IMG/VR virus record: IMGVR_UViG_3300045988_141012
Length of the DNA stretch: 64,000 nt
Source of the DNA: a virus
Strand: one strand, 5' to 3'
Of the stretch, positions 45,001-47,166 are shown piece by piece. Under the pieces are notes generated by a model. The model worked only from the letters and a program-made list of their open reading frames with translations, did no database searches and was not told where the DNA came from. How positions within the stretch are numbered: position 1 is the first letter of the stretch; each line of letters starts with the position of its first letter. Made by a program: the position numbers and the translations under genes.

Positions 45001-45398
45001 CTAAGATTAAGAAGTATGGCGGTGATAAAAAGCCGGTACAGTTCTTAAAGAATGGTAATACATCAGTCAGTGTTAATGCCGATAATACAGACGAAGAAAA
45101 GGAACAAACTGCCGAAGAACGTAAAGCAGAAGAAAAAGAAAAAGAACGTCTTGGTTTCCTTGAAAGTATTTCTAAAAATTTAACCAAAGGCACATTGGAT
45201 GATGAAATCAAAGGTTATGATTATGATACTTTAAAAGGTTTAAAAGAAATGTCTGAATCTTGGGGGAAAGATGACGACCTTACTTCTGAAATCTTAAAGA
45301 GTTTTAAAGACTATGCTGAAGATTTCTCAAAATTGGACGATTGGATTGAGAATGACCTTGAAGATACTTTAAATACCTATAATGAAGACTTTTATTAA
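39075..45398 (+). CDS. giant tail/tape-measure-like protein segment with NlpC/P60 peptidase domain (ORF 2107 aa; modelled as internal exon 39068-45395)
   Basis: No ATG and no SD; the track M is TTG and the frame is open back to 39060. Contains a hydrophobic G-rich segment, long coiled coils and NlpC/P60 ([24 protein letters not shown]...THVGIY...MIHAP, nt ~43440-43750). The stop TAA is formed by the first three intron nucleotides. Confidence 0.75.
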   Translation: [2107 protein letters not shown]

Positions 45399-45505
45399 AC
45401 GAGTCAAGAACACTCGTGACTTTAGTCATGAGATGAATTGACGAGAATAGTAAGCACGTAGGGAAACTTGCGTGTAGTGGTGCTTATGGCATCCAATACT
45501 ACTTG

Positions 45506-45674
45506 AATTGCTGGAAATTCCTAAAGCTATTCAAACTACAACGTAATATCTTCAAAGATATAAGCGTGAATGTGACGAAAGTAGAAAAAATTGAATAGAT
45601 GGTGCAAGGTTAAATCCTAAACACTAAAATAATGGATAATCAGCAGCTAAGACCGAAAGGTAAAGTTCAACGAC
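45506..45674 (+). repeat. 169-nt intron-core repeat, copy B
   Basis: 4 mismatches to 20390-20558. Confidence 0.9.
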
Positions 45675-45947
45675 CATTCCTCTTGAGGGAAGTAGGGACA
45701 AGCGTCCCGAAGTGGGTAGACCCTAACGTGTAATGACGAGGGATAAGATATGGTCTGTGCTTATAGGAAACTATAAGATACCTACTGCTAAACCATAAGG
45801 CAGATAAGGATACATAGAATTAGCGACTCTATGTGAACGACAACCTCTAAAACGATTAAAGAATCTTACGGTTCTTATATATTATTTAAAACTTAATAAC
45901 CTTTCACTTTTTAAACGGAGAATAATTAAGTGAAAGGAAGTGATATT

Positions 45948-47054
45948 ATGGCTGAAAAAGCTTATAAGTATAGAATTTATCCTAATAAGAAACAACAAGA
46001 GTTAATTCAAAAAACTTTTGGTTGTACAAGATTTGTGTATAACTATTATCTTGATAAAAGGATAAAAACGTATGAGCAAGATAAAATGACTTTTACATAC
46101 AACATGTGTTCTAAAGATTTAACCCAATTAAAGAAAGAATTGAGTTGGCTAAAAGAGGTTGATTCGGTTGGATTACAATCTTCACTTAGAGATTTAGACA
46201 TGGCATATCAGAAGTTTTTTAAAGAACATTCTGGTTATCCTAAATTCAAATCAAAGAAAAATAGACATAAGTCTTATAAGACAAAAAATACAAATAACTG
46301 TTTAGGTTTTGAAAATAAGCATATTAAACTTCCTAAACTTGGATTAGTAAAAGTAAGAGATAAACAAATTCCACAAGGACGAATTTTAAATGCCACAATA
46401 TCACAAGAATCAAATGGACAATATTACTGTTCGTTATGTTGTACAGATGTTGAATTTGTACAATACGAAAAGACAAATCAGAATATTGGTATAGATTTAG
46501 GTTTAGTAGATTTTGCAATATTATCTGATGGAAATAAAATTGACAATCCTCGATTTTATGAAAAATCAGAAAAGAAACTTGCTAAATTGCAACGAGAATT
46601 ATCAAGAAAAACAATTGGTAGTAATCGTTGGAATAAAGCAAGAGTGAAAGTTACAAAATTACAAAAGCATATTTCTAATCAACGAAATGATTTCTTACAT
46701 AAGTTAACAACAAACATTGTGAAAAATTTTGATGTTATTAGTATCGAAGATTTAGATGTTAAATCTATGAGAGAAACTGATAGCAATACAAGGAATAAAC
46801 GTGTTGGCGATGTTTCTTGGTCAGAATTTAGACGAATGCTTACATATAAATGTGAATGGTATGGAAAAACAGTATCGGTAATAGACAGATATTTTCCATC
46901 AAGTCAGATTTGTCATTGTTGTGGGCATAGAGATAGTAAGAAATCAGAAGATGTTAGAATTTGGTCTTGTCCTGCCTGTAATTCAGAATTAGATAGAGAT
47001 GTAAATGCAGCTATTAATATTTTGAATGAAGGATTAAGATTGGTAAATAATTAA
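45948..47054 (+). CDS. tnpB: TnpB (IS200/IS605 OrfB-family RNA-guided nuclease), apparently intact
   Basis: N-terminus AYKYRIYPNKKQQELIQKTFGCTRFVYNYYL. RuvC triad contexts IGIDLGL, ISIEDL and RDVNAAINI. Zinc finger CHCCGH...CPACNS. ATG 45948 follows AAAGGAAGTG. Confidence 0.9.
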   Translation: MAEKAYKYRIYPNKKQQELIQKTFGCTRFVYNYYLDKRIKTYEQDKMTFTYNMCSKDLTQLKKELSWLKEVDSVGLQSSLRDLDMAYQKFFKEHSGYPKFKSKKNRHKSYKTKNTNNCLGFENKHIKLPKLGLVKVRDKQIPQGRILNATISQESNGQYYCSLCCTDVEFVQYEKTNQNIGIDLGLVDFAILSDGNKIDNPRFYEKSEKKLAKLQRELSRKTIGSNRWNKARVKVTKLQKHISNQRNDFLHKLTTNIVKNFDVISIEDLDVKSMRETDSNTRNKRVGDVSWSEFRRMLTYKCEWYGKTVSVIDRYFPSSQICHCCGHRDSKKSEDVRIWSCPACNSELDRDVNAAINILNEGLRLVNN

Positions 47055-47166
47055 ATTTTAAATAATGTATATAAGAACCGTAGGAACTACGGGGATAGCT
47101 CGGTGATACTTAACTCGTTGGAGTTATTGACCGAGAACCCTACGACTTTAGTCGTGGGAGGTTCAG
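47055..47166 (+). ncRNA. omega-RNA-like scaffold at the right end (its 5' part probably starts inside the tnpB 3' end)
   Basis: Three hairpins: CCGTAG/CTACGG, CTCGGT/ACCGAG and CCTACGAC/GTCGTGGG. It ends at the element boundary; the guide would be AAAAAGTATTACGAAG... from 47167. Confidence 0.5.

Follow-up and report, generated by a model that had tools for sequence, protein, structure and literature searches.

A probable group A IStron in a giant phage tail gene, with signs of retargeting from TTGAT to TTTAT

Results

The DNA examined here, a 64,000-nucleotide stretch of IMG/VR virus record IMGVR_UViG_3300045988_141012 (the window), holds a phage structural module of 32% G+C with a large terminase gene (13790-15916), a portal gene (15933-17462) and tape-measure-like giant open reading frames (ORFs). 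One of these giant ORFs, a tail gene, is broken by an insert of 1771 nt at 45396-47166 (Table 1), which an earlier note, written from the letters of the window, had taken for an IStron, the combination of a group I intron with an IS200/IS605 insertion sequence (IS). The note had described a tail ORF (39075-45398) that stops at a TAA formed by the first three bases of the insert (45396-45398), a downstream frame open from 47152, and an excision that would fuse the two halves. The ORF list confirms the stop, the frame is open as described, and removal of the insert joins ...NEDFY to KKYYEEQAKY in frame to give a 2914-residue product. Precisely this junction is found in three contigs in which the site is empty (L001-L003), where the sequence reads GAAGACTTTTAT followed directly by AAAAAGTATTACG, that is, window position 45395 joined to 47167. 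The boundary cannot shift, because the bases on both sides differ from the end bases of the insert, and the comparison with the empty sites reveals no target duplication.

A degenerate-pattern scan of IMG/VR with the fused-junction peptide returned 19 loci. Three are the close relatives L001-L003 (97-100% amino acid identity) and 11 are more distant (57-58%), all with the gene uninterrupted; the other five align to the exon-2 half alone, because the tail gene is interrupted there. The earlier note had named two naturally separate genes in homologous phages as the case that would speak against its proposal; instead, each of the 14 uninterrupted homologues has a single protein running through the junction. 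Could the insert be a product of assembly, in which a repeat (IS or intron) was chimerically joined to the tail gene? One related contig (L021), a hybrid of the IStron and another intron, does look misassembled. Nevertheless, the same insert recurs with the same boundaries in four independent contigs (L020, L023, L025 and L047) that come from different samples and have diverged flanks, and its junctions obey the element's own target and terminus rules; we give an artefact practically no weight. With five occupied contigs and three near-identical empty ones among close phages, the insert is real, discrete and polymorphic. Its G+C content (31.7%) lies beside 32.2% for the whole window.

Table 1. 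Positions of the exons, the insert and its parts in the window
Feature	Position	Strand	Remarks
5' exon, giant tail gene	39075-45395	+	2107 codons; Pfam NLPC_P60 (NlpC/P60); weak tape-measure-like PHROG matches (tail and tape-measure families)
TTTAT	45391-45395	+	Transposon target, presumed transposon-adjacent motif and exon strand of P1; U45395 is the splice-site U; from empty-site comparison and covariation
IStron	45396-47166	+	Exact boundaries from empty sites L001-L003; same insert in L020, L023, L025, L047
Left-end subterminal hairpin	45403-45442	+	Core CTCGTGAC-TTTA-GTCATGAG at 45413-45432; outer stem GTCAA/TTGAC; sits in the P1 loop
Internal guide sequence UAGUAAG	45448-45454	+	Pairs with UUUAU and the following UA (45391-45397) as P1; at the 5' splice site, G45450 pairs with U45395
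Intron catalytic core, P2 to P9 including P7.1 and P7.2	45450-45777	+	RF00028; helices covary in the RNAalifold consensus
GAACGA motif, junction of intron and IS part	45835-45840	+	Motif defined in PMC4227781
Long-range pairing, 5' strand	45842-45889	+	42 bp in four helices; partners 47051-47085 and 47146-47163; inverted repeats and RNAalifold
tnpB, ISDra2-like, intact	45948-47054	+	368 residues; Pfam HTH_OrfB_IS605, OrfB_IS605, Cas12f1-like_TNB
TnpB REC patch, residues 71-81 (VDSVGLQSSLR)	46158-46190	+	S73 at the ISDra2 K76 position
TnpB WED patch, residues 105-120	46260-46307	+	Around the equivalents of ISDra2 T123 and N124
3' strand of the inverted-repeat stem closing the tnpB loop	47051-47085	+	Overlaps the 5' arm of guide-RNA hairpin 1
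Three hairpins, presumed omega-RNA scaffold	47078-47158	+	47078-47092; 47099-47135 (inner stem 47111-47126); 47139-47158; minimum free energy fold
Right-end subterminal hairpin CCTACGAC-TTTA-GTCGTGGG	47139-47158	+	Transposase site in DNA, presumed terminal stem of the omega RNA
TCAG terminus	47163-47166	+	Last base G47166 marks the 3' splice site (terminal G) and the cleavage point of the right end
Presumed 16-nt guide and target AAAAAGTATTACGAAG	47167-47182	+	Position from ISDra2/IS605 biology; identical in empty sites L001-L003
3' exon, tail gene	47167-49587	+	806 codons and stop

Scanning IMG/VR with the TnpB sequence of the element, we found 53 phage loci, of which 27 have the same intron core directly upstream of tnpB and the remainder are tnpB-only IS elements. 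At the 16 distinct insertion sites for which both boundaries could be set, the element is always sense-oriented and its removal restores the host ORF, with open frames of 194 to >1600 codons where the opposite strand has 35-155. The host genes of these relatives encode integrase, endolysin, large terminase, DNA helicase and tail proteins, and mobility is evident from the alternation of occupied and empty alleles at the tail site together with related copies at the 16 sites. Megablast of the element, with or without flanks, against 50,697 phage records returned no related phage, the sole matches being 108 nt in Clostridioides phage ES-S-0173-01 and 61 nt in Lak phages. The former (window 46992-47099; 80.6% identity to CP067352.1, 64879-64984) covers the 3' end of tnpB and the start of the right end, and the latter (46203-46263; 85%) recurs in nine Prevotella Lak megaphages; both hint at related tnpB elements in those phages.

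The td-like intron core recognised by the earlier note is confirmed by Rfam: in a search of a 581-nt stretch, the full RF00028 model (1-253) matched 45450-45777 with 68 bits (gathering score 50; E = 3.6e-17). RNAalifold, run on 16 elements with tnpB deleted, recovered P1, the left-end hairpin within the P1 loop, P2, P2.1, P4-P6, P7 (with P7.1 and P7.2), P8 and P9, most of them with compensatory changes; covariation is seen in P1, P2, P4-P6, P7, P7.1, P7.2, P8 and P9. The hallmark hairpins of subgroup IA2 between the P7 strands (45677-45691 and 45695-45708) covary in three of five and four of five pairs, respectively, and P9 extensions are predicted up to the GAACGA motif. Within P1, the window element and L035 have U-A at pair 45393-45452, 12 TTGAT-targeting elements have G-C and two have G-U. 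At the other end, elements with an identified intron all terminate in ...TTCAG, and relatives terminating in ...TTCAA all lack the intron, while a few intron-less relatives also end in G; the pattern fits the need of splicing for a terminal G.

These observations bear on whether the insert is instead a plain, non-splicing IS, which would leave the tail protein as two polypeptides, one of 2107 residues up to the TAA and one of 773 residues from the ATG at 47266. An ATG-initiated ORF is indeed present at 47266-49587, and splicing is something that we infer. Nevertheless, a mere IS would have to account for a complete ribozyme core above the Rfam cut-off, a P1 that fits the exon with a compensatory change, the terminal G, the sense orientation within ORFs at 16 of 16 family sites, and the continuous protein in 14 of 14 uninterrupted homologues. 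We regard it as very improbable.

The IS part carries tnpB. The earlier note had read in it an intact gene with RuvC D/E/D residues and a zinc finger, and Pfam and the alignment with ISDra2 bear this out. The protein aligns end to end with the ISDra2 TnpB structures (PDB 8BF8 and 8EXA; E = 6.9e-92) and has their WED/REC/RuvC/TNB architecture; its RuvC residues D183, E267 and D351 fall on ISDra2 D191, E278 and D361, and two CxxC pairs (C322/C325 and C341/C344) supply the zinc-finger cysteines. Against relatives of 72-83% identity, the ratio of nonsynonymous to synonymous substitution rates (dN/dS) is 0.12-0.17; by this measure the intact gene is under purifying selection. The IS605-style subterminal hairpins reported at both ends with a shared sequence are also present: GACTTTAGTC has exactly two mismatch-free copies in the window, at 45418 and 47144. 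In the DNA fold both copies lie within hairpins (45413-45432 and 47139-47158) whose 8-bp stems close on a TTTA loop and contain a single G-T wobble; these are imperfect hairpins of the IS200/IS605 kind, and terminal inverted repeats are absent. Across 16 elements the left-end hairpin comprises 12 bp, six of them covarying, and GTCAA/TTGAC becomes GCTAA/TTAGC in L035. It occurs at at least 120 loci in bacterial genomes across many Firmicutes; as a common IS type it gives no pointer to the host. Inside the element, eight sigma-70-like promoters were found where 9.2 are expected, and none stands out; because no internal promoter rises above chance, a promoter of tnpB's own is unsupported.

Two RNA folds can be drawn for the transcript. 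One contains a long-range pairing that starts right after GAACGA and stops three bases before the splice site; 93% of its pairs across the alignment are standard, against 36-46% with the partner slid by 1-3 columns, and seven pairs are changed on both sides, notably in L027 and L052. The other is built from the three 3' hairpins, the second of which has an inner stem (47111-47126) with five of six pairs covarying. In an alignment of 27 elements the three hairpins show covariation: 96% of cells are paired, both partners have changed in 11 of 22 pairs, and none of 500 shuffles did as well. For this test the structure was supplied by hand, since RNAalifold dropped hairpin 2 from the 27-sequence right-end alignment, in which two subfamilies are one column out of register. 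The earlier note had the three-hairpin tail ending exactly at the boundary; the three hairpins stand, but in the minimum free energy fold the last one stops 8 nt before the end of the element. Hairpins 1 and 3 share bases with the long-range pairing, which makes the two folds mutually exclusive, and the transcript is predicted to adopt either a splicing or a guide-RNA form. Such competition has been demonstrated experimentally for an IS607-type IStron (PMC10690162, PMC13521648). We also noticed a weak Rfam match of window 47072-47180 to Ref70, 'Enterococcus sRNA 70' (26 bits against a cut-off of 115; E = 0.12); this sRNA family may itself derive from an Enterococcus IS605 element or IStron, as its guide RNA or right end.

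The target read by the element differs from that of most of its family. Most relatives have, after TTGAT, the guide sequence AUAGUCAG (or GUUAG), whereas the window element, the independent L035 and the hairpin-less L053 have, after TTTAT, AUAGUAAG, so that GUAAG in the window's intron guide stands against GUCAG in TTGAT-targeting relatives. As target and guide differ together, the P1 pair at exon position -3 is G-C (or G-U) in the TTGAT class and U-A in the TTTAT class. In step with the target, the bases just 5' of the left-end hairpin differ as well (AAGAACAC versus AACGCACA); in IS200/IS605 elements such as IS608 and ISDra2, these bases are where the transposase-bound DNA reads the target. 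The third reader is the protein. ISDra2 TnpB contacts the -3 G of TTGAT in a bidentate manner through K76 (PMC10097598). The equivalent residue is Lys at all 14 TTGAT IStron sites and Ser or Ala in the TTTAT class, which comprises the window site, L035, L053 and probably L058, L060 and L074. The candidate motif TTTAT put forward in the earlier note thus gains support from the covariation of guide sequence and K76 position; by the same covariation, the target motif of the transposon would also be the transposon-adjacent motif (TAM) of its TnpB. The sole TAM-plus-guide-like site in the window is the occupied junction itself, preceded by TTCAG, two positions off TTTAT, which would explain how self-cutting is avoided.

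How the specificity may have changed is suggested by L022, which is of the TTGAT type and lies in the integrase gene on the same phage contig as the empty tail site L001. The window element differs from L022 at 58 of 1771 positions (97% identity), and these differences are distributed as 22 in 45396-45450, 19 in 46146-46245 (two 50-nt bins that hold the REC patch), 15 in 46246-46350 and two elsewhere; 56 of the 58 therefore lie in the left end with the guide sequence and in the two patches of TnpB that read the TAM. Of the 15 amino acid changes in the protein, 13 fall in residues 71-81 and 105-120. Dense patches in an otherwise identical background point to cassette exchange rather than stepwise mutation, and the window copy appears to be a TTGAT-to-TTTAT retargeted variant that arose by exchange of three short modules, each reading the same pentanucleotide. 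A plausible donor of the TTTAT modules is the type represented by L074 from a gut Clostridium, an autonomous tnpA and tnpB element whose left end, GTCAAGAACACCTGTGACTTTAGTCATAGGATGAATTGAC, closely matches that of the window and whose TnpB has Ser at the K76 position. Such exchange seems to continue and to give mismatched combinations, because L020 (IMGVR_UViG_3300029859_000303, 3001-4107) is a half-swapped chimera with a TTGAT-type REC patch (P71, K73, D74) and a TTTAT-type WED patch; its TnpB may read a motif that does not match its own site.

Flanking sequence offers a view of how the element reached its present hosts. Between -2269 and +789, the window and the empty allele L001 are near-identical except for 22 substitutions confined to -238 to +363, a tract of about 600 nt; beyond this tract, the 5' side has a single difference over about 2000 nt, and +364 to +789 has none. 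The near-flank haplotype of the window is shared by L020, L025 and L047 (0-2 differences in 300 nt on each side), the far flanks of which diverge, and by L023 on the 3' side only (4 differences there, against 13 on the 5' side, where it resembles the empty alleles). From the window's haplotype, empty alleles depart at 5-13 positions. The pattern is suggestive of spread between phages by recombination with co-conversion, that is homing, over fresh transposition.

Among the relatives, several observations stand apart. L074 (2592-2990; Clostridium sp. HCP1S3_C6) and L078 are autonomous, with a Y1 transposase (Pfam Y1_Tnp, E = 5.7e-44) beside a Ser-type TnpB; both are candidates for the TTTAT-module donor and for a transposase acting in trans. 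L060/L061 and L057/L082 retain just 18-42 codons of tnpA. L026 carries a passenger gene on the minus strand (2653-2847) between the closing stem and tnpB, encoding a 64-residue antisense Cro/C1-type helix-turn-helix protein (Pfam HTH_26, E = 1.5e-17); L027, L028, L039 and L065 are longer by 320-370 nt at the same place, and the extra sequence looks related. We had considered this extra sequence as a tnpA remnant and rejected that view upon finding the antisense gene in L026, the one checked. In L044, L051, L056 and L064 (~2440-2550) and in L053 (~2450-2500), the intron and tnpB are kept and the left-end transposase hairpin is lost, L053 still having TTTAT followed by UAAAAC and the guide sequence GUAAG; these look like IStrons turned into plain introns with a TnpB gene.

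Elsewhere in the window, the tail module (29605-35139 and 39075-49587) comprises giant ORFs of 1844 and, once spliced, 2914 codons, both with tape-measure PHROG matches. One gene (PHROG 4088) is divided into 19912-20367 and 21504-22184 by a second group I intron (20331-20691; RF00028, 69 bits), which carries a GIY-YIG/NUMOD3 homing endonuclease ORF at 20768-21481. Between the P3-P6 region of this intron (20378-20564) and IStron positions 45495-45680 the identity is 95% over 186 nt, and the two introns, one with a protein endonuclease and the other with TnpB, have evidently exchanged ribozyme sequence. In L021 (IMGVR_UViG_3300029419_000015, ~2390-2550), the 5' part of the endonuclease intron (equal to window 20219-20390) is joined to the IStron from P3 onward and then to tail exon 2. 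We rejected an initial view of L021 as a 5'-truncated copy, as it combines sequence from both introns of the window; probably the assembly went wrong at the intron core that the two share. If real, the contig would have about 25 kb of structural genes deleted. Upstream of the structural module lie a full-length ROOL RNA (6780-7367; RF03087, 355 bits, E = 2.4e-81) and a tRNA-Met gene (7874-7947).

Discussion

In this study, we examined an insert in a phage tail gene and place it among known IStrons. Group A IStrons consist of an IA2 intron followed by ORF B of IS200/IS605 elements; they insert directly 3' of TTGAT, ATTAT or TTTAT without target duplication and end in TCAG, and their IS part lies downstream of P9.2 after a GAACGA-type motif, with inverted repeats around the ORF and subterminal palindromes (Tourasse 2014, PMC4227781). 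All of this is found at our locus, including TTTAT, TCAG and GAACGA at the positions in Table 1, OrfB_IS605 on the same strand, and inverted repeats enclosing the ORF (45864-45897 with 47050-47085). The departure is a closing stem far longer than the described 6-10 bp, in which it resembles group B. We consider it highly probable that the element is a non-autonomous, phage-borne group A IStron of IS200/IS605 type with a subgroup IA2 intron, and the IStron identity first suggested by the earlier note is thereby supported. In the 2014 survey, phage-borne IStrons were solely of group B, in Clostridium botulinum phages, and group A was found solely in bacteria (PMC4227781); since the surveyed phage IStrons were all group B, the element would be a new member of group A, one carried by a phage, rather than a new kind of element. 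The earlier note had located known IStrons in Clostridioides difficile and C. botulinum; as a correction, phage IStrons were already known, yet only the IS607-type ones of C. botulinum phages.

The bacterial group A IStrons, such as CdISt1 of Clostridioides difficile, EfISt1, FnISt1/2 and CcISt1 (Braun 2000; PMC4227781), have the same IA2 intron and same-strand ORF B (TnpB). They share with the window element the TCAG terminus, GAACGA, inverted repeats, subterminal hairpins and lack of target duplication, and tnpA is often missing from them. The window element differs in sitting in a phage structural gene, in being without any tnpA remnant, and in having an AU-rich closing stem of about 25 bp (42 bp with extensions) rather than 6-10 bp. 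CbISt3 and CbISt4 (C. botulinum phages c-st and D-1873) and CboIStron (PMC10690162, PMC13521648) are likewise phage-borne, and belong to group B. Their transcript has two alternative uses, self-splicing intron or guide RNA for TnpB, with terminal bases shared by splicing, transposition and guide, a state of affairs to which we liken that of the window element. However, these are IS607-type elements with a serine recombinase, a GG-ending target and TAM (TGGG), a CGG terminus and an exon-end G, whereas ours is IS605-type, with TTTAT, TCAG and an exon-end U.

On the nuclease side, ISDra2 TnpB with its omega RNA (PDB 8BF8, 8EXA, 8H1J; PMC8612924, PMC10097598) shows full-length homology and the same D/E/D residues and zinc finger, and its guide is the DNA just 3' of the right end, as we suppose for the window element. 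The equivalents of ISDra2 Y52, S56, Q80, T123 and N124 are conserved, while the window TnpB has S73 and V74 in place of K76 and F77, by which ISDra2 TnpB reads the -3 G and the T beside it; this fits TTTAT over TTGAT. Unlike the ISDra2 gene, the window tnpB is embedded in an intron. The locus also recalls phage introns with homing endonucleases (T4 td, Twort and the window's own at 20331-20691), which are IA2-type, lie in essential phage genes, are polymorphic among relatives and have a flanking-marker pattern compatible with co-conversion. The window IStron departs from them in having a nuclease that is predicted to be RNA-guided and is derived from a transposon, in its transposon ends, and in the many unrelated sites of its family.

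On this basis we propose the following course of events. The element would be transcribed within the tail-gene mRNA, and P1 would form between the exon end UUUAU and the guide sequence GUAAG. The 42-bp long-range pairing (45842-45889 with 47051-47163) would close the tnpB loop and set the terminal CAG beside the ribozyme core, so that splicing could join 45395 to 47167 and restore the 2914-residue tail protein, the ligated exons reading ...GACUUUUAU directly followed by AAAAAGUAUUAC. Alternatively, the 3' 90-100 nt would fold into the three hairpins, bind TnpB and form the omega guide RNA with the first ~16 nt of exon 2. TnpB and its RNA would cut intron-less sites (TTTAT plus AAAAAGTATTACGAAG), for example in a co-infecting phage, and repair from the IStron-bearing genome would copy the element in, amounting to RNA-guided homing. 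Moves to new sites would need a Y1 transposase in trans. Taken as a whole, the reading is that TnpB and its guide RNA took over the role of the intron homing endonuclease, cutting during co-infection at TTTAT plus guide, that the IStron was copied with about 250-350 nt of flank on each side, and that specificity was reset by swapping three cassettes among co-resident copies, namely the left-end hairpin foot with the intron guide sequence, the TnpB REC helix and the TnpB WED loop. We offer this joint claim tentatively, as a serious possibility that falls somewhat short of probable.

Several points weigh against the proposed explanation of the element. We infer splicing, guide-RNA processing and nuclease activity from sequence. 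A P10 pairing between the guide sequence and the 3' exon was sought by eye and found absent. L020, at the same TTTAT site, has a Lys-type patch and is thus an exception to the motif matching. The tail gene is mosaic in general, and the divergent tract could be a coincidence. Portal comparisons did not point to a host: tblastn gave at most 29% identity (Bacillus and Lactococcus phages) and a portal scan of 185,579 genomes was empty. Finally, tblastn detected no tnpA in the window, as the earlier note had stated, or in any of the 53 phage loci, the query being the Pfam-verified Y1_Tnp of L074; it is because no Y1 transposase was matched that we call the element non-autonomous.

That same lack of tnpA in the window and in every phage relative could be taken to indicate a fixed, immobile intron that still splices and no longer moves, its TnpB either kept for another role, such as modulating splicing, or recently stranded. 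The hairpin-less relatives, which keep intron and tnpB, and the mismatch between the TAM patch of L020 and its own site would agree with this. Yet both hairpins of the window element are intact, with a core identical to that of a hairpin common among IS elements of Firmicutes; some near-identical phages have the insert and others lack it, and the family occupies 16 different sites; three target-reading modules changed together; and tnpB retains all catalytic residues at a dN/dS of 0.12-0.17. Immobility therefore seems unlikely to us.

Transposase-less IStrons have been proposed to persist by RNA-guided intron homing, for which experimental validation is still awaited (2026 review, PMC13565253). 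To this picture the present work adds the family context, the apparent three-module switch from TTGAT to TTTAT, the predicted competing folds and a possible conversion tract. The locus offers natural material for a test of homing: a transposase-less IStron in an indispensable phage gene, with occupied and empty alleles in near-identical phages, a guide that matches the empty allele exactly and a flanking-marker pattern that resembles co-conversion. It also presents what looks like a natural specificity switch, as the comparison of the window with L022 points to S73, V74 and the 105-120 loop for re-engineering the TAM of compact TnpB editors. More broadly, IS605-type IStrons are common in large uncultured gut-type phages, beyond bacterial chromosomes and, if our reading is true, modules at the levels of DNA, RNA and protein would all read a single pentanucleotide and be exchanged together.

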